Source: Candidatus Spongiisociaceae bacterium
GTDB lineage: Bacteria; Actinomycetota; Acidimicrobiia; Spongiisociales; Spongiisociaceae
Assembly: GCA_965262915.1 (NCBI GenBank)
Contig: OZ253564.1
Span: 4,416,001 to 4,480,000 of the forward strand
Reading direction: 5' to 3'
Length of the DNA stretch: 64,000 nucleotides
In this document: positions 2,026-52,254 of the stretch, one piece after another
Position numbering within the stretch: position 1 is the stretch's first letter
Layout of the letters: every line of letters starts with the position of its first letter
Program-made: the position numbers and the translations under genes
Notes under the pieces: model-generated
Databases searched by the model: none
Seen by the model: the letters and a program-made list of their open reading frames with translations, nothing else
Told to the model about the DNA's origin: nothing

Positions 2026-3024
2026 TCAGAGGCTCAGCCCGCCGGATGGTCTAACCAGCTGTGGGGTGCTGTCGCGCGACCGGATCCGCACCCGCCGCTG
2101 GTAGAGCTCTTGGAGAGCGTCCCACGCGGTGCGGAGACGGGGATGAGCATCGAACAGTCTGTCGAGGTGCGCCTGGTGGGCTTCGGTTAGGTGATCGGCC
2201 CGGCGCAGGAGGGTGAAGCGGGCTCGGAACAGGTCCGGCTCGAACGTTGGGGGACGCCGGTGGGGGTCGCGGCGCTGCAGCTCTCTGCGTACCAGAGTGA
2301 GGCCTTGGGTGAACCAGCGTACGACGTGGAACCGGTCGAGCACATGGCGAGCAGCTGGCAGATACTGTGCGATTGCGGCCTGATATGAGCGGGACCCGTC
2401 GCTCACGACTATCTCCACCTGCCGGCACCACTGGGGTCCTTGATCCCTAAAGAACCTGGACAGCGACCCTTTCGTGCGACCTGGGATCATCGCCAGCACC
2501 TTGCCGCTGTCGCCACAGGCGACCACAGTCACATACCGGTGACGGCGCCGTATCGACGTTTCGTCGACCAACAGCACACGACACGGCCGGGCCCGGCGAC
2601 GCTGCGCCACCCGCTCCGAGTGGGCTCTCACCAACCCCATTATCCGATGCCACCCAACCCCGTGATGGCGGGACGCTGCCCGAATCGACATCACCGTTGC
2701 ATCCGCCACCAGGCGACGGGCGAACCGGCGGGTTAGGCCAGCTTCGAACTGGTCGTGGTCCTCGAGGTGCCGCTCGCCACAGTTCCCACATTCGAACCGG
2801 CGTCGCCGCCACACCAGCGTGGTGCGGCGGCCGCTCACCTCCAAGTCACGAACCCTCTTGGATCGCCGATCCCACACCCGTCGGCATTTGAACCCGCAAT
2901 GGCGGCACCGCGACCACTCCCGAGCCGATTCCACTTCGACCTCGAGACGCTCAACAGTGTCGACCCCCACCCTCATCACGCGAACACCCGACAAGTGCAG
3001 ACGAACGGACATAACATCAGACAT
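2026..3024 (-). pseudogene. ISL3-family transposase, 3'-truncated
   Basis: CxxC zinc finger, RRRRFEC, VDETS and DRFHVV motifs; C-terminal catalytic region missing. Confidence 0.85.
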
Positions 3025-3123
3025 CGAGGCCTCTCCCTGGATCGGCGATGTTGGCTATTCACCGATTCCAGCGGGGCCTCACCCCCATTCCAAGGATTTC
3101 ACCCCACCCAACCCACGATGCTC

Positions 3124-4357
3124 CTATGTTTTGCAAATCGGTTGTTGGGTGAGCCAGTGTTGGTATCGGGTAGCGAGGTGGTGGTTGTGGTGGAGGCCTC
3201 GTTCGAGTTGTGATAGGACGGTGGGCTGCGTGTCGAGGTGGTGGGCGGCGCGGGTGAGGGTGATTCGGGCTTGGGTTCGGCGGTGGCGTAGGTCGGTTCC
3301 GTGGGGTGTTGGGGGCGGGTCGGTGAGGAGGTGGTATATCTCGCGGGCGATGTGGCGTTTCAGGCAGCGGATTATTTCGGTGTGGGTTTTTCCTTCCGCT
3401 TCGCGTCTGGTGACATATTCTTTGGTGGCAGCGTCGGTGCGCATTCGGTTGGTAGCGCATCGGCCATAGCGCGTTGTTTGCTTGGCGGTTGCCGCCTCGG
3501 TTGAGACGGTGCCGCACTATCGGTCCCGATGATGCGGCTACGGGGCTGAGGGCGCAGAGGGCCGCGAAGGCTGCTTCTGAGTTCATACGTCGTGGGTTGT
3601 CACCAGCAGCGACCAGGAGAGCAGCGGCGGTGTCGGGTCCTACTCCGTAGGCGGCCAGCAACGCAGGGTTGGCCCGTGCGCAGAGACCGCGGATCTGTTT
3701 GTCGACCTGTGTGATCTCGGTGTCTAGATTCTGGTATCGGCGGGCTAGAAGCCGCAGTGCCCGCTTGGCGTATGCCGCAGTGGTCTGCGCTGTGGCTGGA
3801 CGGAAGCGGGCACAGACCTTGACCTGTGTCCGGGTCGGGAGATCCCGGAGTTGGTGTTTGACCTGCTCAGGAGCGGTTACTACCAGAGCGTGCAGCTGGT
3901 TGGCGGCCTGGGTGCGGGCTTTGACCGCGGAGCGGCGAACTACCCGCAGCATCCTGGTGGCTTCTACCGGTCCGTCGCCCGTCTTGGGTAGGGCGGTCGC
4001 TTCACCGTTGAGAGCAGCCCGGGCTGCTGCCTCAGCGTCGGTGGTGTCATCCTTGCCCCGCCGCCGGCGAAGCTGGCGGTTGGGACGGTTCACCTCCACC
4101 ACACCGATACCCGCCTCGGTGAGATGACGTGTGAGCCCAGCGCCGTAGCTGCCCGTTCCCCCCACCCCGACCCGGCAGATCCGACCCCACGACTCCATCG
4201 GGGCGACCAGTTGGGCATAACCGGAGGTATCAGCCCCGAACTGGGCGGATCCCAACAGGCGACCCGCGCCATCCACCACCGCCCCAACGTGGAAATCCCG
4301 ATGTGTGTCCACCCCGCCAACCACACCTACCCCATCGGCCCTAACTTGCTCCGCCAT
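3124..4357 (-). pseudogene. IS110 recombinase with C-terminal XRE HTH, frameshifted
   Basis: GVDTH and RLNRGGNRQAN motifs; VGVGGTG replaces the VGVEGTG of sister copies; frameshift near 3460. Confidence 0.85.
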
Positions 4358-4451
4358 GTGCTCGCCTTTCGTCGGCTGCCTAGAATCCAACCCCCGGAGC
4401 CGGGCAGAGCGGCGGACAGAACACTCACGGTGCAAAAGTCGAAGGCTCCTA

Positions 4452-4690
4452 ATGGGGGTCCACCACTTCTGCCGGTGTTTCTGGGAGGGTGTGGTGGTTG
4501 AGCTGGCTGGCCGGTGAGTACTCCAGGCTCCTGGAACGTTGATTCCTGCTGATAGATCGTGCCCCGGCCGGTGAGTGAGGGCCGCTTGTAGCGCTCATGG
4601 GGTGGCGTGCCACAGAGCACTGATCCATTAGGTCGCCGCCAGGCGTTCTCCACAGCTCAGCAGAGAGTGGACCCGCGCAAGGAAGGGGCG
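4452..4690 (+). ncRNA. Putative bridge RNA
   Basis: AGGCTCCT (4525-4532) and TGATAG (4550-4555) match the target flanks; TGGGGTG (4598-4604) and CCATTAG (4625-4631) match the element's own ends. Confidence 0.7.
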
Positions 4691-4694
4691 AAGG

Positions 4695-5915
4695 ATGATC
4701 TTTGTGGGTAACGACTGGGCTGAGGGACATCACGATGTGTATCTCATGGACGAGGAGGGAGCCCGCCTGGGGTTCTCCCGTCTACCGGAGGGCCTGGCGG
4801 GTGTGGCCCGCTTGCACGAGATGGTCGCCAAACACGCATCGGATGCGGCCGAGGTGGTGGTAGGGATCGAGACCGACCGTGGTCTGTGGGTCGGTGCTCT
4901 GGTCGGGGCGGGTTATCAGGTGTATGCGATCAACCCGATGGCAGTTTCCCGTTACCGGGACCGTCACCGCCAGGGTGGAGCCAAATCAGACCGAGGAGAC
5001 GCCAAGGTGTTAGCCGATCTGGTACGCACCGACCGTCACAACCACCGTCCGGTAGCCGGGGACAGCCCCGAATCGGAAGGTATCAAGATCATGGCCCGTG
5101 CCCATCAGAACCTGATCTGGGCGCGGACCCGCCACACCAACCAGATGCGCAACGCGCTGCGCGAGTACTACCCTGCAGCCCTGGAAACGTTCGATGACCT
5201 GGCCCATCGCGACGCCCTAGCCATACTCGGTCGGGCACCCACCCCCACCCGGGGCGCCCGCCTGACACTTCCCCAGATCAGAGCAGCGGTACAGAGAGGC
5301 GGACGGAAACGCAACCTCGACAAGGTTGCCCGCCGCATACAGAAAGGCCTCAGAGGTGCCCACCTCACCGCACCCGGGCCGGTCGCGGACGCCTTCGGGA
5401 CGATCGTTGCTTCGCTGGTCAAGATCATCGCGGAAACCAACCGCCAGATCGCCGACCTCGAAGAAACCCTCGAGACCCATTTTGAAGAACACCCGGACGC
5501 CGTCATCTACCACTCCCAGCCAGGACTCGGTACCGTGCTCGGCGCCCGGGCGCTCGGTGAGTTCGGGGATGACCCCGACCGCTACACCAGCGCCAAGTCT
5601 CGCAGAAACTACGCCGGCACGTCGCCCATCACCATCGCATCAGGCCGCAAACACGCCGTCGTTGCCCGCCAGGTCCGCAACCGGCGACTCCCCAACGCTT
5701 TGGACCAATGGGCATTCTGTTCCCTCAACAACAGTCCAGGAGCGCGAGCCTTCTACGACCAACGAAAAGCAGCCGGCGACCTCCACCACCAAGCACTACG
5801 AGCCCTCGCCAACCGGCTCGTCGGCATCCTCCACGGCTGCCTCAAACACCGAACCCCCTACGACGAACACACCGCCTGGGCACACCGAACCATGCTCGAC
5901 CGAGCCGCAGCTTGA
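4695..5915 (+). CDS. IS110-family recombinase/transposase
   Basis: GNDWAEGHHD, GIETDRG, AKSDRGDA and YAGTSPITIASG motifs; intact ORF. Confidence 0.92.
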   Translation: MIFVGNDWAEGHHDVYLMDEEGARLGFSRLPEGLAGVARLHEMVAKHASDAAEVVVGIETDRGLWVGALVGAGYQVYAINPMAVSRYRDRHRQGGAKSDRGDAKVLADLVRTDRHNHRPVAGDSPESEGIKIMARAHQNLIWARTRHTNQMRNALREYYPAALETFDDLAHRDALAILGRAPTPTRGARLTLPQIRAAVQRGGRKRNLDKVARRIQKGLRGAHLTAPGPVADAFGTIVASLVKIIAETNRQIADLEETLETHFEEHPDAVIYHSQPGLGTVLGARALGEFGDDPDRYTSAKSRRNYAGTSPITIASGRKHAVVARQVRNRRLPNALDQWAFCSLNNSPGARAFYDQRKAAGDLHHQALRALANRLVGILHGCLKHRTPYDEHTAWAHRTMLDRAAA

Positions 5916-5937
5916 CATTTACGCTCCTGGGGTGTCT

Positions 5938-6060
5938 ATCAAGTCACCCCGCTCCCCGGTTCAGGGTTCCCACCCGGGGCCAGGTCGACAGATCGTGGGA
6001 AAGGCACCAAAGGCCAGTTTTCGCGTGAGTCAGACCCGGCCCCAACCGGAAACCCTATAA
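5938..6060 (-). ncRNA. 5' half (target-binding loop) of the split bridge RNA of the outer IS110; 3' half at ~4360-4448
   Basis: Same scaffold as 40812-41030; variable segment ATCGTGGG (5992-5999) equals the element's right flank. Confidence 0.65.
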
Positions 6061-6370
6061 GTATGAGTGTTTCCGCGCAGGGCCAACTACTCATCTAGGC
6101 TAGGCTGTCATGTGGCACAACAATCCGAAGGTCCACTACAAGTGTGAGGGCCTCGAGTCGGGTCCTTGTGAAAAGCGGCATCATGACCTTATGACAGCGG
6201 TTCACCATACGGACAAGTACAACCGGCGGGTTTCGATGGACAATCCGAGGGCGGTGGGGGATCGGGTAGTGATCGCCCATGGCGACCTTGATCCGTTGCC
6301 CTATCCAGTGCGGGCCGCACAACCCTGCGACTGCCCCACCGATCATTGAGGCCGGGAGACGGGGAACGGT

Positions 6371-11019: not shown

Positions 11020-11115
11020 GGGCATCACACCCCAGGCCGGAGACAGGCCGACAGATCATAGAAAAGGCACAACGGCCAGTTTGTCAAAGGGTCAGACCTG
11101 TCCCCGGCCCAAGAC
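11020..11115 (-). ncRNA. Orphan IS110 bridge-RNA target-loop fragment
   Basis: GGCCGACAG-N8-AAAGGCACAA-GGCCAG-N9-GGGTCAGACC scaffold shared with 22284-22335; no adjacent recombinase. Confidence 0.6.
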
Positions 11116-20688: not shown

Positions 20689-20907
20689 GCTCCCTTCTGC
20701 CCAGGTGAAGATCCGCCGGGTCGGCGTCGTGCGGACGCTGATATCGAGGATGACAAGTGACCAGTCTTGGCGGGTGGCGCGGTCGGCTAGGGCGAGGATG
20801 TCGGAGGAGTTACGGCCGAAGACGGGAGACGACCGACACGTCAGCCCGGCCTTCGTTGAGGCCCTGGAGGATGCGCCTTATTGGGCTCATCGATGCTCCT
20901 ATGGTTG

Positions 20908-22137
20908 TCAAATCGATGATGGGGCGGTTTGGTGGGTGTGCAGCCAGTTCTGGTATCGGGTGGCGAGGTGGTGGTTGTGGTCTCGGCCGTGTTCGAGTGC
21001 TGAGATGCGATTGGGGTGGGTTCCGACGGCTTGGGCGGTCTGGGTGAGGGTGATGCCGCGTTGTTGGCGTCGGGTGCGTAGGCGGGCGCAGTTCGGGGTT
21101 GGGTGCGGGTTGGTGAGGAGCCGGTAGATTTCTCGGGCGATGTGCCGCTTGAGGCAGCGGATGATCTCCTTTTTCTTCTTGCCCTCGGCCTTGCGTCGTG
21201 CCACGTAGGCTTTGGTGGCGGCGTCGGTGCGCATCCGGGTGGTAGCGATCCGCCATAGCGCGTTGTTGGCTTGGCGGTTGCCGCCCCGGTTGAGACGATG
21301 CCGAAGGGTTCGTCCTGATGACGCCTGGACGGGGCTGGCGCCGCACAGCGCCGCGAAAGACCGTTCCGATTTCATTCGCTTGGGGTTGTCGCCGGCGGCG
21401 ACCAACAACGCGGCGGCTGTGTCAGGACCGACACCTTCTGTGGCCAGCAGGGCCGGGTTGGCCTGGGCGCAGAGACGCCGGATCTCGGCTTCGAGTTGGG
21501 CGATCTCTACGTCGAGGGCCTGATACCGGCGGGCCAAATGCTGTAGGGCACGCTTCGCATACGCGGTGGTGGTGTGGTCTGTGCCGGGTCGGAACCGGGC
21601 ACAGGTTTTGACCCGTGCTTTGAGATTCATGCCCTTTAGCTGGTGTTTTAGCGGCTCGGGAGCTGTTACGACCAGCGCATGTATCTGGTTAGCGGCCTGG
21701 GTGCGGGCCTTGACCGCGGAGCGGCGCACCACCCACAGCATCCGTATGCACTCGACCGGGCCCACACCGGACTTGGGAACCGCGGTTGCTTCGCCCGAGG
21801 CAGCTGCCCGAGCTGCCGCCTCGGCGTCGACGCTGTCGGTCTTGCCGCCCTTCTGGCGGCGTAGTTGGCGGTTGGGGCGGTTGACCTCCACCACCTCGAT
21901 GTTCATCTCGGTCAGGTAACGGGCCAGGCCGGCGCCGTAACTACCCGTTCCTTCCACCCCAACCCGAACCAACTGTCCCCGCGACTCGAACCAGGTGACC
22001 ATTCGCCGATAACCGGATTCCTCCACCGCGAAAGACTCCGATCCCAGTACCCGCCCGACGCCATCCACCACCGCTGCTACGTGGACGTCCCGATGGGTGT
22101 CAACCCCACCGTAGATAATCTGGTCTGCTTCTCCCAT
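20908..22137 (-). CDS. IS110 recombinase with C-terminal XRE HTH
   Basis: GVDTH, VEGTGSYG, KTDSVDA and ASSG motifs; protein identical to 41043..42272. Confidence 0.93.
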   Translation of the reverse strand: MGEADQIIYGGVDTHRDVHVAAVVDGVGRVLGSESFAVEESGYRRMVTWFESRGQLVRVGVEGTGSYGAGLARYLTEMNIEVVEVNRPNRQLRRQKGGKTDSVDAEAAARAAASGEATAVPKSGVGPVECIRMLWVVRRSAVKARTQAANQIHALVVTAPEPLKHQLKGMNLKARVKTCARFRPGTDHTTTAYAKRALQHLARRYQALDVEIAQLEAEIRRLCAQANPALLATEGVGPDTAAALLVAAGDNPKRMKSERSFAALCGASPVQASSGRTLRHRLNRGGNRQANNALWRIATTRMRTDAATKAYVARRKAEGKKKKEIIRCLKRHIAREIYRLLTNPHPTPNCARLRTRRQQRGITLTQTAQAVGTHPNRISALEHGRDHNHHLATRYQNWLHTHQTAPSSI

Positions 22138-22149
22138 GATGCTCTTCTC

Positions 22150-22365
22150 CTCTAGGGGATAGAATCATTTCCGATCCCCGGACCCGTGTGCGGTTGGACA
22201 GGCCACTCACGGTGGAGAAGTTGAAGGCTCCTATTAGGTCACATCCGCCCCGGGTCAGGGGGTTACGCCCCAGGCCGGGAACGGGCCGACAGATCGATGA
22301 AAAGGCACAAGGCCAGATTTCAGTTGGGTCAGACCCGCCCTAGCCCAGGAACCCTCTAATTATGA
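22150..22365 (-). ncRNA. Putative bridge RNA
   Basis: Guides AACTGAAAT and TCATCGAT match the target; ATAGGAGC and TGAGTGG match the element's own ends. Confidence 0.7.
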
Positions 22366-22372
22366 GTGGATT

Positions 22373-39022: not shown

Positions 39023-39509
39023 TCGGCCACTACCCGGAGGGGCTACCAGGCCGTCGTTTGTGCAATCCGGCGGGTTCATGGCATTGGATACCGAAGCCCA
39101 TTTCGCTGGCCATTCTGGGCCAGCTCTTGTAATCCATGGTAGGGCGAATCGGGGCGACCACGGCTTAGAACGGAGAAGGAGCAGCCATAGCGGACAGCGG
39201 CGGCGACCGACGTAGCCAGCGCCACAGAGCCGAACACGATCGCCGTCGCCCACAACAGTTCGGCCTCCCGAAAATGGTCTCTCAGTTTCATCGCCGCCCC
39301 GGTGACGGCCGTTACGGACAGGAGATCTCGACTGTTACCCCCAGGGTCACACTGATCCCCACGACGGCGGCGGCTACGGCCTGAATCTGGCTCTTCGGAA
39401 ATGAGTGGGGAGTAGGGGATCTGCCAGGGGGAGTTGGAATCCACCAGAAGTGAGGAGGGGTCCTCCATAATCGGGTGTTGGTAATGACATCCGAGGCAGG
39501 AGGACCCCT

Positions 39510-40808
39510 GTGGAAGCTGATCCTACGCGCATGTGCGAGAAGTTGGTAGGCCTAGGTGAGGTTGATCTGGTAGGGATCAACGACCCGGGCGAGGAGGCAC
39601 CGTTGGAGGTGGTGATCCGGTCCCGCAAGCCCCGGCCGTTGTGTGAGTCCTGTGGCGGGTCGGTGTGGTCGAAGGGCTATCGGACGGTTGTGTTGGTGGA
39701 TTTACCGGCGTTCGGCCGGCCTGTGCGGCTGCGGTGGCGGAAACGGCGCTGGACATGTCCGAACCCCGACTGTGCGCTCAGATCGTTCATCGAACAAGAC
39801 CCCAAGATTGGTCCCCAACGGGCGTTGTTGACATCCCGAGCGGCCCGGTGGGTGACCATCCAGGTGGGTGGGCGGGGCCGTTCGGTCGACGAGGTCGCCG
39901 CAGAACTTGGTTGTGATTGGCATACGGTGAACAAAGAGGTTGGCCGCTGGGGCGAAGCGCTGCTGGAAGCAGACACCGATCGGGTCGGGACCGTCGAAGC
40001 TGTGGGAGTGGACGAGACGTTGTTCTGGCGTCGGGGCCGTTGGCGTACCAAAGTCTGGTGCACCTCTGTCGTCGACGTTGGCGGCCACCAGCTGATCGAC
40101 ATAGTCCCTGGTAGAACAGCAGAAAGCGCCGCAGCCTGGTTCCGGTCACAACCCACCGAATGGTGTGAGGCTATCCGCTGGGCGGTGTTGGACATGTCCG
40201 GTTCGTATCGGAAGGCGTATGACAGGGTGCTGCCGCACGCGCTGCAGGTAGCGGACCCGTTCCACGTCATCCGCCTCGCCAACCAGCGTCTCGACGAGGT
40301 ACGACGAAGAGTCCAAAACGAAACCCTCGGGCATCGAGGCCGCAAGGATGACCCGCTGTATCGGATACGGCGGCTCCTAACCGCTGCGCATGAGAGGATC
40401 AGCGACCGGGGTCAAATACGGCTGCGTGGTCTCCTCGATGCTGGTGACCCCTACGGGGAAGTGCGCACAGCCTGGCACGCGAAAGAGACGGTACGAGGCA
40501 TCTACGGGATCGAGAGTCCGGTCCTTGCTCTCCGATACACCCTCCAGCTCGCAGACGACCTCCAACACGAATCCTGCCCACCCGAGATCAACAAGCTGGG
40601 TCGTACCATCGCCCGCTGGACCCCCCAGATCACCAACTGGCACATCTCGAAGGTAACCAACGGACCCACCGAAGCCCTCAACAACCTCATCAAACGGATC
40701 AAACGAGCAGCGTTCGGGTTCCGCAACTTCGCGAACTACCGAATCCGCGCCCTTCTCTACGCGGGGAAACCCAACTGGGACCTACTCCCATCGGTCACTC
40801 CCCACTGA
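39510..40808 (+). CDS. ISL3-family transposase
   Basis: GVDET, LDMS, DPFHV and TNGPTEALNNLIKRIKR..FGFRN motifs; intact. Confidence 0.93.
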   Translation: MEADPTRMCEKLVGLGEVDLVGINDPGEEAPLEVVIRSRKPRPLCESCGGSVWSKGYRTVVLVDLPAFGRPVRLRWRKRRWTCPNPDCALRSFIEQDPKIGPQRALLTSRAARWVTIQVGGRGRSVDEVAAELGCDWHTVNKEVGRWGEALLEADTDRVGTVEAVGVDETLFWRRGRWRTKVWCTSVVDVGGHQLIDIVPGRTAESAAAWFRSQPTEWCEAIRWAVLDMSGSYRKAYDRVLPHALQVADPFHVIRLANQRLDEVRRRVQNETLGHRGRKDDPLYRIRRLLTAAHERISDRGQIRLRGLLDAGDPYGEVRTAWHAKETVRGIYGIESPVLALRYTLQLADDLQHESCPPEINKLGRTIARWTPQITNWHISKVTNGPTEALNNLIKRIKRAAFGFRNFANYRIRALLYAGKPNWDLLPSVTPH

Positions 40809-40814
40809 AATCCA

Positions 40815-41030
40815 CTCATACTTAGAAGGTTCCTGGGCTAGGGCGGGTCTGACCCAACTGAAATCTGGCCTTGTGCCTTTTCATCGATCTGTCGGCCCGT
40901 TCCCGGCCTAGGGCGTAACCCCCTGACCCGGGGCGGATGTGACCTAATAGGAGCCTTCAACTTCTCCACCGTGAGTGGCCTGTCCAACCGCACACGGGTC
41001 CGGGATCATAAGTGAGTCTATCCCCTAGAG
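40815..41030 (+). ncRNA. Putative bridge RNA
   Basis: AACTGAAATC (40856-40865), TCATCGAT (40881-40888), ATAGGAGC (40947-40954), TGAGTGG (40972-40978). Confidence 0.72.
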
Positions 41031-41042
41031 GAGAAGAGCATC

Positions 41043-42272
41043 ATGGGAGAAGCAGACCAGATTATCTACGGTGGGGTTGACACCCATCGGGACGTCCACG
41101 TAGCAGCGGTGGTGGATGGCGTCGGGCGGGTACTGGGATCGGAGTCTTTCGCGGTGGAGGAATCCGGTTATCGGCGAATGGTCACCTGGTTCGAGTCGCG
41201 GGGACAGTTGGTTCGGGTTGGGGTGGAAGGAACGGGTAGTTACGGCGCCGGCCTGGCCCGTTACCTGACCGAGATGAACATCGAGGTGGTGGAGGTCAAC
41301 CGCCCCAACCGCCAACTACGCCGCCAGAAGGGCGGCAAGACCGACAGCGTCGACGCCGAGGCGGCAGCTCGGGCAGCTGCCTCGGGCGAAGCAACCGCGG
41401 TTCCCAAGTCCGGTGTGGGCCCGGTCGAGTGCATACGGATGCTGTGGGTGGTGCGCCGCTCCGCGGTCAAGGCCCGCACCCAGGCCGCTAACCAGATACA
41501 TGCGCTGGTCGTAACAGCTCCCGAGCCGCTAAAACACCAGCTAAAGGGCATGAATCTCAAAGCACGGGTCAAAACCTGTGCCCGGTTCCGACCCGGCACA
41601 GACCACACCACCACCGCGTATGCGAAGCGTGCCCTACAGCATTTGGCCCGCCGGTATCAGGCCCTCGACGTAGAGATCGCCCAACTCGAAGCCGAGATCC
41701 GGCGTCTCTGCGCCCAGGCCAACCCGGCCCTGCTGGCCACAGAAGGTGTCGGTCCTGACACAGCCGCCGCGTTGTTGGTCGCCGCCGGCGACAACCCCAA
41801 GCGAATGAAATCGGAACGGTCTTTCGCGGCGCTGTGCGGCGCCAGCCCCGTCCAGGCGTCATCAGGACGAACCCTTCGGCATCGTCTCAACCGGGGCGGC
41901 AACCGCCAAGCCAACAACGCGCTATGGCGGATCGCTACCACCCGGATGCGCACCGACGCCGCCACCAAAGCCTACGTGGCACGACGCAAGGCCGAGGGCA
42001 AGAAGAAAAAGGAGATCATCCGCTGCCTCAAGCGGCACATCGCCCGAGAAATCTACCGGCTCCTCACCAACCCGCACCCAACCCCGAACTGCGCCCGCCT
42101 ACGCACCCGACGCCAACAACGCGGCATCACCCTCACCCAGACCGCCCAAGCCGTCGGAACCCACCCCAATCGCATCTCAGCACTCGAACACGGCCGAGAC
42201 CACAACCACCACCTCGCCACCCGATACCAGAACTGGCTGCACACCCACCAAACCGCCCCATCATCGATTTGA
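41043..42272 (+). CDS. IS110 recombinase with C-terminal XRE HTH
   Basis: Same motifs and sequence as 20908..22137. Confidence 0.93.
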   Translation: MGEADQIIYGGVDTHRDVHVAAVVDGVGRVLGSESFAVEESGYRRMVTWFESRGQLVRVGVEGTGSYGAGLARYLTEMNIEVVEVNRPNRQLRRQKGGKTDSVDAEAAARAAASGEATAVPKSGVGPVECIRMLWVVRRSAVKARTQAANQIHALVVTAPEPLKHQLKGMNLKARVKTCARFRPGTDHTTTAYAKRALQHLARRYQALDVEIAQLEAEIRRLCAQANPALLATEGVGPDTAAALLVAAGDNPKRMKSERSFAALCGASPVQASSGRTLRHRLNRGGNRQANNALWRIATTRMRTDAATKAYVARRKAEGKKKKEIIRCLKRHIAREIYRLLTNPHPTPNCARLRTRRQQRGITLTQTAQAVGTHPNRISALEHGRDHNHHLATRYQNWLHTHQTAPSSI

Positions 42273-42739
42273 CAACCATAGGAGCATCGATGAGCCCTGA
42301 ATCTGCGTCCTCGTGGATCCCTCCGGGCGGTTCGCTGAGTAGGCCAACATACACAGCCCGCGCCAAGGCGCCACGCCACATGGGGAGACCTAGGCGAGGT
42401 GTTTTGGTACAGTGGGTGTCGTTGTGTTGTAGACAAGAAACTATGATACGGGATGGATACTCCGCTCGGGTCAGGGTTGCGAGCCTCTGCCTAAAGGACT
42501 ACTCTCCCGAAGATATAGGGCCACGGTGAGCCCGGCAGCCAGCCGAGGTACTCCCCCCAAACCCGGGTGTAGAAATCCGTCTGGCCCATCTGTCTTCTAA
42601 CCATCTTGGTTTCTATTTTTGGACCGGGAGACGTGGCCATGGCCGCCCTCCCGGTTTCTATTGTCCGGAGGGCGGTACCCCATCACGGACCGAGAGGGTG
42701 CCCGCGTGGTTGTTCGTGATCCCGGTAGGAGCCTCTCAG

Positions 42740-45966: not shown

Positions 45967-46324
45967 TTGGTCTCTCCCTTCGTGGTTCTCATAACGGTCG
46001 GGGTCACCCTTCGCAGTAGCCTCCCCGCCGGTCCGATGACTTCCTCCCAACGGAGAAGGTCCGTATCTGCCCGTCCTCCTGGCGGACCCGCACCTGCCCG
46101 CTCACTCTCGATTCCCACACCGAGTAGCCATCACTCGAACAGTACTCGTCCACAGGGGCGTAGACAGTCCGATAGCTGCTCCAGTCTTTTGCGTTCCTGT
46201 CCCACATTACCCAGAAGACGAGACCGTCACGTGCCCACAGTTGGCCTGGGCAACCTTTGAACCGTACCGGGTTTGTTGACGATCAGCGAAATTACCCAGT
46301 CTCGATCACCGAAAATCACTCATA

Positions 46325-46580
46325 GTGGATGGTGCCCCGTTTCTTTGGGGGTCACTGCGATGATGCGGGTGGCCCCCCGGGACCGGGGGGCGGGTCTGAC
46401 CCAACTGAAATTTGGCGTGTGGATTGCCTTTGTGGGGATCTGTCGGCCTGTTCCCCCGGTCCCGGGGGCGGGGTTGTGGCTCGAAGCGGATGTGACCTTG
46501 TAGGAGCTTTAGCTTGCCAGCACCGTGAGTGTATTGTCCGCCGTTTTTGGCCGGAGCCCCTTCTAGCAAGACGGTAGTCC
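46325..46580 (+). ncRNA. Putative bridge RNA directed at the IS21 IR
   Basis: GTGGGGAT (46432-46439) is complementary to the right flank ATCCCCAC; GTAGGAGC (46500-46507) matches this element's variant right end. Confidence 0.72.
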
Positions 46581-48054
46581 ACGGGGAGGTGGGTCGTGTC
46601 AGAGGATGGGGTTGGTGTTTTCGGGCTCTTCGGAAATGAGGGGGGAGTAGGGGGTCGGCTAGGTGGTGCCGTAATCCACCAGAAGTGATGGGGGGTCCTC
46701 CATAATCGGATGGTTGGTAACAGACATCCGAGGCAGGAGGACCCCTGTGGAAGCTGATCCTACGCGCATGTGCGAGAAGTTGGTAGGCCTGGGCGACGTT
46801 GATCTGGTAGGGATCAACGACTCGGGCGAGGGTGCACCGCTTGGGGTGGTGATCGGGTCCCGCAAGCCCCGCCCGTTGTGTGAGTCCTGTGGCGGCCCGG
46901 TGTGGTCCAAGGGTCACAGAACGGTTGTGTTGGTGGATTTACCGGCGTTCGGCCGTCCGGTTCGGCTGCGGTGGAGGAAACGCCGCTGGACGTGCCCGAA
47001 CCCCGACTGTGAGATCAGATCGTTCATCGAACAAGACCCCAAGATTGGTCCCCAACGGGCGTTGTTGACATCGAGAGCGGCTCGGTGGGTGACCGTCCAG
47101 GTGGGTGGGCGGGGCCGCCCGGTCGACGAGGTCGCCTCGGAGTTGGGTTGTGATTGGCATACGGTGAACAACGAGGTCGTCCGCTGGGGCGAAGCACTCC
47201 TGGGGGCCGACACCGATCGGATAGGCGAGGTCGGAGCTGTGGGCATCGACAAGAAGCGTTGTTCTGGCGGAAAGGCCGGTGGCGCACCAAGGTTTGGTGC
47301 ACTTCTGTCGTCGATGTGGGAGGCCGCCAGTTGATCGACATAGTCGGTGGTAGAACGGCAGAAAGCGCCGCAGCCTGGTTCCGATCCCAGCCCCCCGAGT
47401 GGCTCGACGGGATCCGCTGGGCGGTGCTGGACATGTCAGGGCCTTATCGGAAGGCGTACGACCGGGTGCTACCGCACGCGCTGCAGGTAGCGGACCCCTT
47501 CCACGTCATCCGCCTCGCCAACCAGCGACTCGACGAAGTACGACGAAGAGTCCAAAACGAAACCCTCGGGCATCGAGGACGCAAGGATGACCCGCTGTAT
47601 CGGATACGGCGGCTCCTCACCGCCGCCCATGAGAGGATCAGCGACCGCGGTCAAACACGGCTGCGTGGTCTCCTCGACGCTGGTGACCCCCATAGCGAAG
47701 TCCGCACCGCCTGGCACGCGAAAGAGACGGTCCGAGGCATCTACGGGGTCGACAGTCCCGCCCTCGCTCTCCGATACACCGTCGGGCTCGCGGACGACCT
47801 CCAGGACGAATCCTGCCCACCCGAGATCAACAAGTTGGGTCGCACCATCGCCCGCTGGACCCCCCAGATCACCAACTGGCACATCTCGAAGGTAACCAAC
47901 AGATGCCACCGAAGCCCTCAACAACCTCATCAAACGCATCAAACGAGCAGCGTTCGGGTTACCCAACTTCGCGAACTACCGAATCCGCGCCCTTCTCTAC
48001 GCGGGGAAACCCAACTGGGACCTACTCCCATCGGTCACTCCCCACTGAAATCCA

Positions 48055-48275
48055 CTCATACTTAGAAGGTTCCTGGGCTGGGACGGGTCTGACCCAACTG
48101 AAATCTGGCTTTGTGCCTTTTCATCGATCTGTCGGCCTGTTCCCAGCTTGGGGGTGTAACCCCCTGACCCGGGGCGGATGTGACCTTATAGGAGCTTTGA
48201 TCTTCCACCACCGTGAGTGGTCTGTCCACCGCCTTCCGGGTCCGAGGATTAGGAAGTGATTCTATCCAGCAGAGG
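48055..48275 (+). ncRNA. Putative bridge RNA
   Basis: Same four guide segments as 40815-41030. Confidence 0.7.
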
Positions 48276-48286
48276 AGGAAGGTGTC

Positions 48287-49603
48287 ATGGGAGAAGATGG
48301 TCGGGTTGTGTTCGGTGGGGTTGATACCCATCGTGATACCCATGTGGCGGCGGTGGTTGATGGCGCCGGTCGGGTCCTGGGAACGGCACCGTTCGGAGCT
48401 GATCCGGTCGGCTATGAGCAACTGGAAGACTGGTTGCGGTTACAGGGTCGCGTTAGCCGGGTAGGAGTGGAGGGCACCGGCAGCTACGGCGCCGGCCTCG
48501 CCCGCTATCTGATGGCGGCGGGCATCGAGGTGGTAGAAGTGAACCGGCCGAACCGGCAGCTACGCCGCCAGCGGGGCGGCAAGACCGACAGTGTCGACGC
48601 CGAGGCGGCAGCTCGGGCAGCGGCCTCGGGGCAAGCTACCGCAGTTCCCAAATCTGGTGACGGACCGGTTGAGTGCATACGGATGCTGTTGGTGGCCCGC
48701 CGCTCGGCTACCAAGGCCCGCACCCAGGCCGCTAACCAGATACATTCTGTGACCGTTACTGCACCTGAGCCGCTAAAACGCCAGCTCAGAGGTCTCAAGC
48801 TCAAGGCTCGGGTTCGGGTCTGTGCCCGCTGGCGTCCCGGCCAAGCACAGACCACTGCGGCGTACGCGAAGATGGCTCTACGCTACCTGGCCCGCCGATA
48901 CCAATCCCTCGACGCAGAGATCCGCGAACTCGACGTCGAGATCCGTCGCCTCTGCGCCGAGGCTAACCCGGCTCCCTTAGCCGCCACCGGTGTGGGCCCT
49001 GACAGCGCTGCTGCGCTGCTAGTCGCTGCCGGCGACAACCCCGGACGGATGAAATCGGAACGGTCCTTCGCTGCGCTATGCGGCGCCAGCCCCGTCCAGG
49101 CATCATCGGGACAGACCATCCGGCATCGTCTCAACCGGGGCGGCAACCGCCAAGCCAACAACGCACTCTGGCGGATCGCTACCACCCGGATACGCCACGA
49201 CGCAGCCACCAACCAATACGTGGCACGGCGCCAGGGGGAAGGAAAGAACCGAAAAGAGATCATCCGCTGCCTCAAGCGGCACATCGCCCGAGAGGTCTAC
49301 CGACTGCTGACCAACCCGCCACCAACCCCGAACTGCGCCCGGCTCCGCCGCCGACGTCAACACGCCAACATCACCGTCACCCAGGCCGCCCAGCTGACCA
49401 ACCCGCCACCAACCCCGAACTGCGCCCGGCTCCGCCGCCGACGTCAACACGCCAACATCACCGTCACCCAGGCCGCCCAACAGCTCGGAACCCACCCCAG
49501 CCGCATCTCAGCACTCGAACACGGCCGAGACCACAACCACCAACTCGCCAGCCGATACCAGACCTGGCTCCTAACCCACCAACCGGCCCCATCACCGACT
49601 TGA
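48287..49603 (+). CDS. IS110 recombinase with HTH tail and an 87-bp in-frame duplication
   Basis: IS110 motifs; LTNPPPTPNCARLRRRRQHANITVTQAAQ occurs twice. Confidence 0.9.
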   Translation: MGEDGRVVFGGVDTHRDTHVAAVVDGAGRVLGTAPFGADPVGYEQLEDWLRLQGRVSRVGVEGTGSYGAGLARYLMAAGIEVVEVNRPNRQLRRQRGGKTDSVDAEAAARAAASGQATAVPKSGDGPVECIRMLLVARRSATKARTQAANQIHSVTVTAPEPLKRQLRGLKLKARVRVCARWRPGQAQTTAAYAKMALRYLARRYQSLDAEIRELDVEIRRLCAEANPAPLAATGVGPDSAAALLVAAGDNPGRMKSERSFAALCGASPVQASSGQTIRHRLNRGGNRQANNALWRIATTRIRHDAATNQYVARRQGEGKNRKEIIRCLKRHIAREVYRLLTNPPPTPNCARLRRRRQHANITVTQAAQLTNPPPTPNCARLRRRRQHANITVTQAAQQLGTHPSRISALEHGRDHNHQLASRYQTWLLTHQPAPSPT

Positions 49604-49627
49604 CAACCATAGGAGCATCGATGAGCC

Positions 49628-50837
49628 TGTTTTCGGTGGGGTTGATACCCATCGGGATGCCCATGTGGGGGCGGTGGTGGATAGCGCTGGTCGCCTGTTG
49701 GGTTCGGAGTCGTTCGCAGCGGAGAGAGCCGGGTATCGCCAGATGGTCGCCTGGTTCGGATCGCAGGGATGCCTGGTTCGGGTCGGGGTGGAAGGGACAG
49801 GCAGCTACGGCGCTGGGCTGGCTCGTTATCTGACCGCAGCCGACATCGATGTGGTGGAGGTGAACCGCCCCAACCGCCAACTACGCCGCCAAAAGGGCGG
49901 GAAGTCTGACAGCGTCGACGCCGAGGGAGCAGCTCGGGCGGCTGCTAGCGGGGAGGCGGCGGCGGTTCCTAAATCCGGTGATGGGCCGGTTGAGTGCCTC
50001 CGGATGCTGTTGGTGGCCCGCCGCTCCGCGACCAAGGCCCGCACCCAGGCCGCTAACCAGATCCATTCTGTGATCGTTGGTGCCCCAGAGCCGGTAAAAC
50101 ACCAGCTCAAGGGTATGAACCTCAGAGCACGGGTCCGGGTCTGTGCCCGCTGGCGTCCCGGTGAAGCACAGACCACAGCCGCGTACGCGAAGAAGGTTCT
50201 ACGCCACCTGGCCCGCCGATACCAAACCCTCGACGCAGAGATCACCGAACTTGAGGGAGACATCCGTCGTCTCTGCGCTAGGGCGAACCCGGCGTTGTTG
50301 GCCGCCAACGGTGTGGGCCCTGACACAGCCTCGGTGCTGCTGGTCGCAGCCGGCGACAACCCCGGGCGAATGAAATCGGAACGGTCCTTCGCGGCGCTGT
50401 GCGGCACCAGTCCTGTTCAGGCATCATCGGGACAGACCATACGGCATCGTCTCAACCGGGGCGGTAACCGCCAAGCCAACAGCGCGCTGTGGCGGATCGC
50501 TACCACCCGGATGCGCACCGACGCTGCCACCAAAGAATATGTGACCAGACGCCAGGGGGAAGGAAAGAACCGAAAAGAGATCATCCGCTGCCTCAAGCGG
50601 CACATCGCCCGAGAGATCTACCGACTACTCACCAACCCGCCCCCAACCCCGAACTGCGCCCGCCTACGCGACCAGCGTCAACATGCCGGTATCACCGTGA
50701 CCCAGGCCGCCCAAGCCCTCGGAACCCACACAGCCCGCATCTCAGAACTCGAACTCGGACGGAACCACAACCACCAGCTAGCGACCCGATACCAGAGGTG
50801 GCTCCGCACCCACGAGGCGGCCCCATCACCGATTTGA
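49628..50837 (+). pseudogene. IS110 recombinase separated from its start by ISL3
   Basis: FGGVDTHRD begins at the TSD. Confidence 0.88.
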
Positions 50838-50949
50838 CAACCGTAGGAGCATCCCCACCCTGTGACAGCAAATACCAGACGTTGAGTGGGGTCCTCTCCA
50901 AGCTGCTGACTGAGAGATCTGGCAGCGAGGAGAGGGAGCCCTGCCGCTG

Positions 50950-52254
50950 ATGTTGGCACAGGAGGAATCCGTGGAAGTACACGCGTTGAGGAAGCGAGGC
51001 TGGTCGATGTGGGCCATTGCCCGCCATGTGGGAAGAGACCGCAAAACAGTACGAGCTCACCTTTCTGGTGAGCGTATCCCCGGGCAGCGGAGGTCGGCGG
51101 AGCCGGATCCGTTCGATGTGGTCGAGGCTTATGTTGGGCAGCGGCTGGCCGAGGATCCCCATCTTTGGGCGACGGCACTGTTCGACGAAGCCAAGGGTCT
51201 GGGGTATGGGCAGAGCTATGTGACGTTTGCCCGTAAGATCCGAGTCCGGCGGCTGCGTCCGTCGTGTGCGGCGTGTGGGGGAACCCGAGGACAGCCGACC
51301 GTGGTGATCGATCATCCGGCGGGCGAAGAATGCCAGTGGGACTGGTTGGAGTTGCGGGACACCCCGTGGGGGTCGAAGGTTTTCGTGTTGGTGGGTGTGC
51401 TGTCACATTCGGGCAGGTTCCGGGCGTGGGTGAGCTCGAGCCAGGACCAGGCGCATCTGGTGGAGGGCATCGACGGGGTGCTGCGCCGCTTCGGGGGGAC
51501 TGCCCGGCGGTGGCGGGTGGATCGTATGGCGACGGTGGTGGTGCCGGGCACCGACCGGATACAGGCGTCGTTCGTGGGAGTGGCGAAGCATTACGGTGTC
51601 GGGGTTGATCCGTGTCCGCCGAGACGGCCGAACCGCAAAGGCGTGGTCGAGAAAGCGATCCATTACATAGCTCAGCGGTGGTGGCGCACCGCTGCGGTGG
51701 GAACACTGTCCGAGGCGCAGGACAGCCTCGACCACTTCTCCCAGACGGTTGGGGATGCCCGTCGGCGGGCTGGGGACACGGTTGGGGAACTCGCCGACGC
51801 AGAACCGTTACTTCCGCTTCCTGCGATGCCGTATCCCGCGGAGGGAGTCCTGGTCCGCAAAGTGGCTGCCAACGGGCTGGTGTCGGTGTGGGGCAACCAG
51901 TATTCGGTGCCACCAGGGGTTATAAGAACCGAAGTTAGCGTTCGTTGGCGGCTGGGTGACCCCAGCTTCGATGTAATCTCGGCTTCTGGGCGGCTGGTCG
52001 CCACCCACCGCAAGGTCCCCCGAGGCCAAGGCAGGGTGGTTCGCCTTCCCGAACATACCGCAGCCCTGGAGAAGGTCGTGCTCGGGGCGTTCACCACAGC
52101 CCGGCCCCCCAAACCCAAACCCAACCGGCCACCATCGGCAGCGGCTCGGGCGATCGCCGCCGACATTGGGGGCGGAGTGGAACACGACGAGCCGGTGATC
52201 GACCTCGCCGTCTACCAACGTCACATCGACCAACAGAACCGGGGCCGGCGATGA
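50950..52254 (+). CDS. istA: IS21 transposase
   Basis: HTH, GEECQWDW, VDRMAT and KGVVE motifs. Confidence 0.9.
   Translation: MLAQEESVEVHALRKRGWSMWAIARHVGRDRKTVRAHLSGERIPGQRRSAEPDPFDVVEAYVGQRLAEDPHLWATALFDEAKGLGYGQSYVTFARKIRVRRLRPSCAACGGTRGQPTVVIDHPAGEECQWDWLELRDTPWGSKVFVLVGVLSHSGRFRAWVSSSQDQAHLVEGIDGVLRRFGGTARRWRVDRMATVVVPGTDRIQASFVGVAKHYGVGVDPCPPRRPNRKGVVEKAIHYIAQRWWRTAAVGTLSEAQDSLDHFSQTVGDARRRAGDTVGELADAEPLLPLPAMPYPAEGVLVRKVAANGLVSVWGNQYSVPPGVIRTEVSVRWRLGDPSFDVISASGRLVATHRKVPRGQGRVVRLPEHTAALEKVVLGAFTTARPPKPKPNRPPSAAARAIAADIGGGVEHDEPVIDLAVYQRHIDQQNRGRR

Follow-up and report, generated by a model that had tools for sequence, protein, structure and literature searches.

The locus considered here occupies positions 39389-42296 of a 64,000-nt stretch of the genome of a Candidatus Spongiisociaceae bacterium (the window, by which the whole stretch is meant), and consists of an insertion sequence (IS) of the ISL3 family, the right inverted repeat (IR) of which is interrupted by an IS110-group element. 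Very probably this element is an ordinary, IS621-like bridge-recombinase element, whose clade has diversified within one genome (5.06 Mb, a single contig, 64% G+C) into about ten guide classes aimed at mobile elements. According to the proposed mechanism, the 230-nt left end would encode a bridge RNA with a target-binding loop (left and right target guides, LTG and RTG) and a donor-binding loop (left and right donor guides, LDG and RDG). The RNA would steer a DEDD/Ser recombinase, which would integrate the circular form of the element after ...ACTGAAATCC in the ISL3 right IR, an event that would detach the outer 8 bp of this repeat, and in each of the other guide classes of the clade the loops would match a different mobile-element site.

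Left-end scaffolds, guide loops and insertion sites

A regular expression found 34 left-end scaffolds genome-wide, and an nhmmer profile returned 39 matches, namely the same 34 together with three second halves of interrupted copies and two remnants; a tblastn search of the genome with the recombinase clade yielded 50 matching stretches. The scaffolds share the invariant blocks GGTCTGAC, GGC, GCCTT, GATCTGTCG, TGAC, TAGG and TGAGTG, which alternate with short line-specific blocks, and they sort into guide classes or lines, termed A (17 scaffolds), B (2), C (4), D (3), E (2), F (1), G (1), J (2), H (1) and I (1, degenerate). The guide strings quoted in a preliminary description of this DNA are all present (AACTGAAAT at 40856-40864, TTCATCGAT at 40880-40888, GTGGGGAT in the copy at 46317 and CCCACGAT in the copy at 3118).

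The target-loop strands match the left flank (in sense) and the right flank (in antisense), and the donor loop matches the right and left ends of the element. Loop order and polarity agree with IS621: the target loop precedes the donor loop, and the 5' strand of a loop has the sense of the flank, while the 3' strand is complementary. For IS621, the available parts of the original reports describe a bridge RNA encoded in a long left end, a target loop that precedes the donor loop, and loops whose 5' strand is paired to the bottom DNA strand and whose 3' strand to the top one (PMC11208160, PMC11208158). RNAalifold, run on one representative from each of nine lines, recovered a 14-bp outer stem and a 3-bp GGC/GCC inner stem, which flank precisely the two variable strands, a layout expected of a target-binding loop, with compensatory change in 5 of 32 pairs. 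Columns 1-6 of the alignment pair with columns 235-240, i.e., the right donor guide with the left end, in nine of nine sequences. An orphan, degenerate target-loop scaffold lies at about 11022-11105 of the window (minus strand; LTG CCTTTGACAAA, RTG reverse complement ATCATAGAA), with neither a left-end motif nor a recombinase match nearby.

Guides and flanks were compared in the 30 copies with both ends; G, H, I and one J copy, for which no right end was found, were excluded, and a match was defined as at least 6 of 9 positions on the left and at least 5 of 7 on the right. In 29 of the 30 complete copies the element's own guides match both flanks, the 5' strand being equal to the left flank at 6-9 of 9 positions and the reverse complement of the 3' strand to the right flank at 5-7 of 7. 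The eight distinct guide pairs reach a cognate score sum of 114, as compared to a permutation mean of 67.9, and 114 was attained in 10 of 100,000 permutations, the number expected from the identity arrangement and the swap of two nearly identical E guides. The match between guides and flanks is far beyond chance, and the co-variation across genomic copies that the preliminary description proposed to look for is borne out. In three further lines from other genomes of the same order the flanks also match the guides, and an identical A element resides in an ISL3 right IR in an Acidimicrobiia metagenome-assembled genome record (L001). The tally of 26 of 151 genomes includes one unpublished genome (G004), on which no other statement relies.

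Several points weigh against the bridge-RNA reading. The scoring of left guides permitted two registers, a choice made post hoc, and in lines A and F the pairing of the left guide is shifted by one base when compared with C, D, E and G. Independent guide classes number only about 8-11, some copies may be duplicates that moved with their host element (the flanks of the D copies at 715 kb and 1730 kb are 91% identical), and one of the 30 complete copies disagrees with its own guides. RNAalifold on the nine lines failed to recover the donor-loop fold, such that the donor loop is known by sequence complementarity alone; the single-sequence minimum free energy is no better than that of shuffled sequences (z = -1.06); and no relevant Rfam match was obtained at E <= 1 in 40700-41150, the sole match being a chance one to CRISPR-DR8 (E 0.16). 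Finally, neither a transcript nor a circle junction nor an excision product was seen in the contigs of the public runs, which decide neither way.

Every identified target site lies in another mobile element, and no host-gene target was found among the copies examined. Line A uses the right IR of ISL3 family 1, at 8 bp from the terminus; line B is located 43 nt inside the left end of an IS21 element (IstA with rve and Mu-transpos_C_2 domains); line C occupies an IR of a second ISL3 family, at about 14 bp from the terminus; and lines E and G use subterminal sites in this same second family. Line D targets the conserved ...GKEH/NAAV... region in the gene of another IS110-family recombinase (Transposase_20), and line F a site 12 nt from the end of a repeated element. 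The five window copies and their hosts (ISL3 right IR, IS21 left end and IR of the second ISL3 family) were correctly named in the preliminary description (Table 1). Its broader proposal, that one IS110 lineage has been retargeted to several IS families, holds insofar as the variable loops track insertion sites at IS ends or in IS genes; the AT core and the empty site that came with it do not hold, as detailed below. The left flanks of more scaffolds (H, J and remnants; window 46274-46316, genome 293303, 341505 and 3970115) resemble IS21-type left ends (GATCACCGAAAAT-like), and CACTGAAA is common to IS21 and ISL3 sites and may have eased a switch between them. Conversely, ISL3 elements are also inserted into IS110 copies, so that the families interrupt each other: the line B copy of the window is split by the ISL3 element 46624-49627 (target-site duplication (TSD) TGTTTTCG), which in turn carries the A2 copy, and an A copy is split at genome 4176841-4178261.

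Line A occupies 16 of the 32 cognate ISL3 right IRs. Eight A1 copies encode an identical recombinase, and their ISL3 hosts are 85-100% identical to the window ISL3 and have different outer flanks, a combination that points to repeated, recent and independent insertions. The same junctions might have been multiplied by copying ISL3::IS110 composites or larger segments as units, as the homologous flanks over 400 nt of the two D copies and the location of the C copies in a repeated host element would suggest. As a general account this is very improbable, since the ISL3 hosts of the eight identical A1 genes diverge from one another by as much as 15%, every ISL3 is bordered by an outer flank or TSD of its own, and 16 of the 32 cognate repeats are still empty, among them those of 10 uninterrupted copies with the same sequence as the interrupted copy of the window.

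As judged from sequence comparison, site specificity tracks the putative RNA module of the left end rather than the protein. The A1 and A2 recombinases are just 77% identical, yet the two sub-lines have guides and site in common, whereas the recombinases of D (81%) and B (79%), which are no more distant from A1, belong to elements with different guides at different sites. Likewise, B and E elements are 90% identical in DNA and differ in guides and sites. That the protein picks the site, e.g., via its additional C-terminal helix-turn-helix (HTH), and that the variable segments are incidental, could be argued from the HTH_31/HTH_3 domain, which is lacking in IS621, and from the fact that an RNA from the left end is not demonstrated. 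Given the protein comparisons and the eight guide pairs, all of which mirror both flanks in the correct polarity, this explanation is scarcely credible, and guidance by the left end is the reading adopted here. A1 and A2 elements are 80.6% identical over their whole length and 97.7% identical over the first 200 nt, which suggests that lines have exchanged the bridge-RNA module.

The one complete copy that departs from its own guides (genome 3665110-3663633) carries A guides and sits past the stop codon of an IS1182/IS5-like transposase gene (DDE_Tnp_1, DUF772). The preliminary description had named a copy at a site unrelated to its variable segments as evidence against its view; such a copy exists once in 30, and its site fits the guides of the co-resident line D. 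The flanks agree with the copy's own guides at 5/9 and 2/7 positions and with the line D guides at 8/9 and 5/7 (7/16 vs 13/16), with the other nine guide pairs at most at 9/16, and the maximum for unrelated guide-site pairs in the matching test is 11/16. We lean towards guidance by the D target loop jointly with the A2 donor loop, in a single event, and the available parts of the IS621 reports describe a complex that draws its target loop and donor loop from two different RNA molecules (PMC11208160, PMC11208158). A plain off-target of the copy's own guides, or a chimera formed by gene conversion, appears rather unlikely. Off-targets are documented for bridge recombinases (PMC11208160, legend of Extended Data Fig. 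7) and the insertion happened once, but the scores favour line D, and along its whole length the copy has 99.1% identity to an A2 copy, with no D-like 200-nt window, and is therefore not a chimera.

Empty sites and the crossover point

Uninterrupted copies of the target reveal what the IS110 element interrupts. A pattern search identified 21 uninterrupted ISL3 right IRs, 12 of which read ...ACTGAAATCCGATGAGCC and six ...AAACGCGATGAGCC, along with two other variants and a single one of the form ...AAATCGATGAGCC; three additional uninterrupted repeats read ...ATCCGAAGAGCC. Over 1421 nt the window ISL3 shows 100.0% identity to each of 10 genomic copies that are uninterrupted, every one of which ends in ATCC, and contigs of the public runs X3 and X4 pass from 40813 directly into GATGAGCC. 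The empty repeats and these contigs define the IS110 element as C^ACTCAT...GGAGCATC^, inserted without duplication or loss and with one C common to donor and target. Under this one-C rule, empty sites were found for lines A (12+3), B (1), C (3, and one variant), E (4), F (4) and G (2), and the joined flanks of line D align gap-free, at 107 of 120 positions, to an intact paralog.

The preliminary description had placed the copies at the same, duplicated AT and had predicted empty sites reading CCACTGAAATCGATGAGCC. This form occurs in one of the 21 uninterrupted repeats, as opposed to the 12 that read ...ACTGAAATCCGATGAGCC, and the empty repeats and the 10 identical ATCC copies indicate one shared C instead. 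An AT core would require ...AAATCGATGAGCC as the empty site, seen once vs 12 times for ...AAATCCGATGAGCC; it would demand the loss of 1 nt in each of 16 diverged ISL3 copies, one of them 100% identical to 10 uninterrupted copies; and it fails outright in lines C, D and F. The two-base cores TC and CA each fail in at least one line. The sole uninterrupted ISL3 right IR that is short of one C (genome 306070-306087) may be a simple variant or a scar.

With the numbering used for IS621, position 9 is an invariant C in donor and target. Position 8 is T in every donor and in the targets C (lines A and F), A (C, D and G) or T (B and E), such that donor and target differ in five of the seven lines examined. 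The 3' strand of the target loop reads A-T-C, i.e., donor positions 7-9, in 34 of 34 scaffolds, a feature that the regular expression did not impose; in the window copy, the ATC in the reverse complement of the RTG equals the last three bases of the donor. The base at target position 8 is found in the 3' strand of the donor loop in lines A, F, C, D and G; lines B and E lack this feature. The apparent co-variation of TGAGTGG vs TGAGTGTT with the left end, as noted in the preliminary description, is really one with the target nucleotide beside the shared C, as the left end CACTCAT is invariant in all lines. By comparison, the co-variation of ATAGGAGC and GTAGGAGC with the right end is real and represents a single evolutionary event, as lines B and E are 90% identical.

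The IS621 reports, as far as available, describe top strands that are cut after core position 9; once these are exchanged, the 3' strands of the loops pair to the incoming core and to the partner DNA at positions 6-7, the so-called handshake (PMC11208160, PMC11208158). In the junctions of the complete copies examined, the left one keeps the target's position 8 base and the right one the donor's AT. This pattern fits a product that would be determined by top-strand exchange, as proposed for CazIS110-1, a Firmicute system for which the available part of the preprint presents an experimental top-strand integration model (bioRxiv 10.1101/2025.10.25.684509); the junctions are as that model predicts, and they are known here from static genome sequence alone. 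A core dinucleotide shared as in IS621-like elements is lacking, one C only being common to donor and target. The one-base core is a relaxed rather than a different rule, since the first core base may vary in IS621 as well, according to the accessible parts of the same two reports (PMC11208160, PMC11208158).

Anatomy and possible expression of the element

The features of the locus and the related copies in the window are listed in Table 1. The stop codon (TGA) of the ISL3 transposase gene lies within the right IR, 5 nt ahead of the IS110 insertion point. The inserted element has the hallmarks of the IS110 group, namely a long non-coding left end upstream of the gene, a short right end, and no terminal inverted repeats.

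Table 1. Coordinates of the nested ISL3 and IS110-group elements and of related copies in the window
Feature	Position	Strand	Remarks
ISL3 host element, family 1	39389-42296		Interrupted in right IR by IS110-group element
ISL3 TSD, 8 bp, CTGAATCT	39381-39388, partner 42297-42304		Direct reading
ISL3 left IR, GGCTCTTCGGAAATGAGTGGGG	39389-39410	+	Same head on other ISL3 copies
ISL3 transposase, 432 aa	39510-40808	+	Pfam DDE_Tnp_ISL3 1.1e-57, Zn_ribbon_ISL3, HTH_Tnp_ISL3
Inner portion of ISL3 right IR, CCCCACTGAAATCC	40800-40813	+	C40813 common to IS110 donor junction
Outer 8 bp of ISL3 right IR, GATGAGCC	42289-42296	+	Cut off from remaining IR by IS110
IS110-group element, line A1, 1.48 kb	40813-42287	+	Ends ambiguous by one shared C (or 40814-42288)
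Non-coding left end, 230 nt	40813-41042	+	
Candidate -10 box, CATACT	40817-40822	+	Motif reading, analogy with IS621
LTG, AACTGAAAT(c)	40856-40865	+	Same sense as left flank CACTGAAATC, 9/9
RTG, TTCATCGAT	40880-40888	+	Reverse complement ATC-GATGAA covers right flank (C)GATGAG, 6/7
LDG, AATAGGAGC	40946-40954	+	Identical to right end CATAGGAGC (42277-42285)
RDG, TGAGTGG	40972-40978	+	Complementary to left end CACTCA and target base preceding shared C
Recombinase, 409 aa	41043-42272	+	Pfam: DEDD RuvC-like domain, Tnp domain, additional C-terminal Xre-type HTH
Candidate -35 box, TTGACA	42269-42274	+	Right end, overlaps stop codon; conserved GATTTGACAACC in all right ends
Right end, 15 nt past stop codon	42273-42287	+	
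Second A1 copy, in another ISL3 right IR	20893-22368	-	Genome 4436893-4438368
A2 copy, in right IR of ISL3 46624-49627	48053-49618	+	Recombinase 48287-49603 (438 aa)
Line B copy, 43 nt inside IS21 left end	46317-50852	+	IS21 start 46274; IstA 50950-52254
Line C copy, in IR of second ISL3 family	3118-6069	-	Host ISL3 transposase 2026-3024

The recombinase matches the Pfam families DEDD_Tnp_IS110 (PF01548, 1.2e-23) and Transposase_20 (PF02371, 1.7e-19), and its nearest solved relative by sequence is the IS621 transposase 8wt6 (phmmer, E 9.5e-12). The GvDT, vEgTG, KTDsVDA and SG motifs are all aligned, and with them the acidic D, E, D and D residues and the catalytic-Ser SG motif. The two Pfam families are also represented in the recombinases of the related window copies. 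The Xre-type HTH (HTH_31, HTH_3) is found at window 42093-42200 (residues 351-386), outside the region covered by the IS621 chain. The A2 recombinase comprises 438 instead of 409 residues, and a direct repeat of ~87 nt is present at window about 49307-49480, just ahead of its HTH region.

We infer that the left end is transcribed, that the element passes through a circular intermediate with a junction promoter, and that the insertion disables the host IS. Circularisation would place TTGACA 17 nt ahead of CATACT and in this way create a candidate junction promoter, as judged by motif only. Contigs of the on-record RNA run X3 cover 40700-40813 and 41801-41952 only, i.e., part of the ISL3 and a piece of the recombinase gene, and not the left end; the runs X1 and X2, taken to be RNA by guess only, include a contig of 163 nt over 40815-40976. 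No joint between right end and left end is listed among the contigs of the public runs. In one low-depth contig of run X4, 40823 is joined to 42279, such that the initial 11 nt of the left end meet the final 9 nt of the right end, with one extra G; it could stem from an internally deleted mini-derivative in another ISL3 copy. A reversible disabling of the ISL3 is plausible from its arrangement, in which the outer 8 bp of the IR lie 1.48 kb from the rest, while the transposase gene is intact.

Known relatives and a second IS110 family

The biology described here is largely established, as the insertion of superfamily members into the IRs of other transposons has already been published. IS4321/IS5075 target the IRs of Tn21-family elements and IS1383 those of IS1384, according to the titles of references 10 and 13 in PMC11208160, and guidance by bridge or seek RNAs and the co-variation of loops and targets across orthologues are documented in the available parts of PMC11208160 and PMC11187229. 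The literature searches turned up no report of IS110 elements whose targets are ISL3 or IS21 ends, and none of a guide radiation inside one genome; the supplementary target tables of these two papers could hold such cases.

As far as the accessible portions of these sources allow a comparison, the element shares with IS621 a DEDD and Ser recombinase, a bridge RNA (here a predicted one) in the left end, the loop order, and loop strands near the crossover that match the non-cognate DNA, as in the handshake. The two systems differ in that donor and target of IS621 have a CT dinucleotide in common, whereas here a single C is shared and the preceding base is unequal in five of seven lines; moreover, the recombinase described here has an extra C-terminal HTH, and the targets are transposons instead of repetitive extragenic palindromic (REP) sequences. 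IS4321 and IS5075, which belong to the IS1111 group, are likewise DEDD-family elements found at one position and in one orientation in the terminal IR of another transposon, yet their RNA lies downstream of the gene, they have long subterminal repeats and one target class, and no guide radiation within a genome is described in the parts of the sources available. IS1383 resembles the present element as a superfamily member whose specific target is the IR of another IS, but represents a single pair in Pseudomonas. The IS1111 group is characterised by a non-coding region downstream of the gene and by subterminal inverted repeats of 7-17 bp (PMC11208160, PMC11187229, in the parts available); here, the non-coding region lies ahead of the gene and the right end measures 15 nt, which is at odds with membership in that group.

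With the mechanism itself known, the value of the locus is that of a natural experiment. About ten related guide classes in one genome, most of them with empty as well as filled sites, show which loop positions evolve and that specificity appears to move with the left-end module. The relaxed core indicates that one shared base suffices and that the preceding base may differ between donor and target, with a product that always follows the top strand. A possible mixing of loops between RNAs bears on the risk of off-targets if several bridge RNAs are used in genome engineering. In this genome, which is rich in IS elements and of the symbiont type, landing sites are preferentially other transposons, and half of the cognate ISL3 ends are occupied.

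A second, unrelated IS110 family with a CT core (recombinase 4695-5915) includes a sub-line of three copies that are mutually 98.5-100% identical (window 4450-5937, plus strand; genome 287300-288789 and 3638542-3640031). These are inserted in the DNA that encodes the donor-binding loop of the first family (GTGACTTGATAG^GAGCC), and their own loop strands CCAGGCTCCT and GCTGATAG match this site; in the window it is the donor loop of the line C copy that is split by such an element (about 4450-5937). Among seven sister copies, in which the loop strands are GGTGGCACCC plus AGTGCCAG, AGTGTCAG or AGTGCTAG, six reside in repeats of the GACACCT/GGCACCT type, and the seventh matches only partially. In one copy, at 291612, the guides fit the right end of the first family.

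These observations allow, as a tentative and rather doubtful extension, the picture of a self-contained network, in which RNA-guided transposons would prey on other transposons and on each other, through exchange or mutation of loops, targeting of guide-coding DNA and mixing of loops from different RNAs. If true, one IS110 clade would occupy the ends of two ISL3 families and of IS21 as well as the gene of another IS110 element; insertion of the second IS110 sub-line would destroy the donor-loop RNA of the first family; and an element could go to a site picked by the target loop of a rival. The exchange of guides in trans and the targeting of guide-coding DNA would then be natural forces in the evolution of bridge RNAs.

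Two further loci contain complex arrangements of these elements. At genome 286-294 kb (L036) a line J copy adjoins a type-2 IS110 right end, and a truncated type-1 right end is found on its other side; two orders of events were tried for this locus, neither of which accounts for all junctions. In another genome (G072, locus L030), the 16 nt to the left of a copy equal its own scaffold and left guide, as if it had landed in the target-loop DNA of another copy, an origin that the right flank does not fit.

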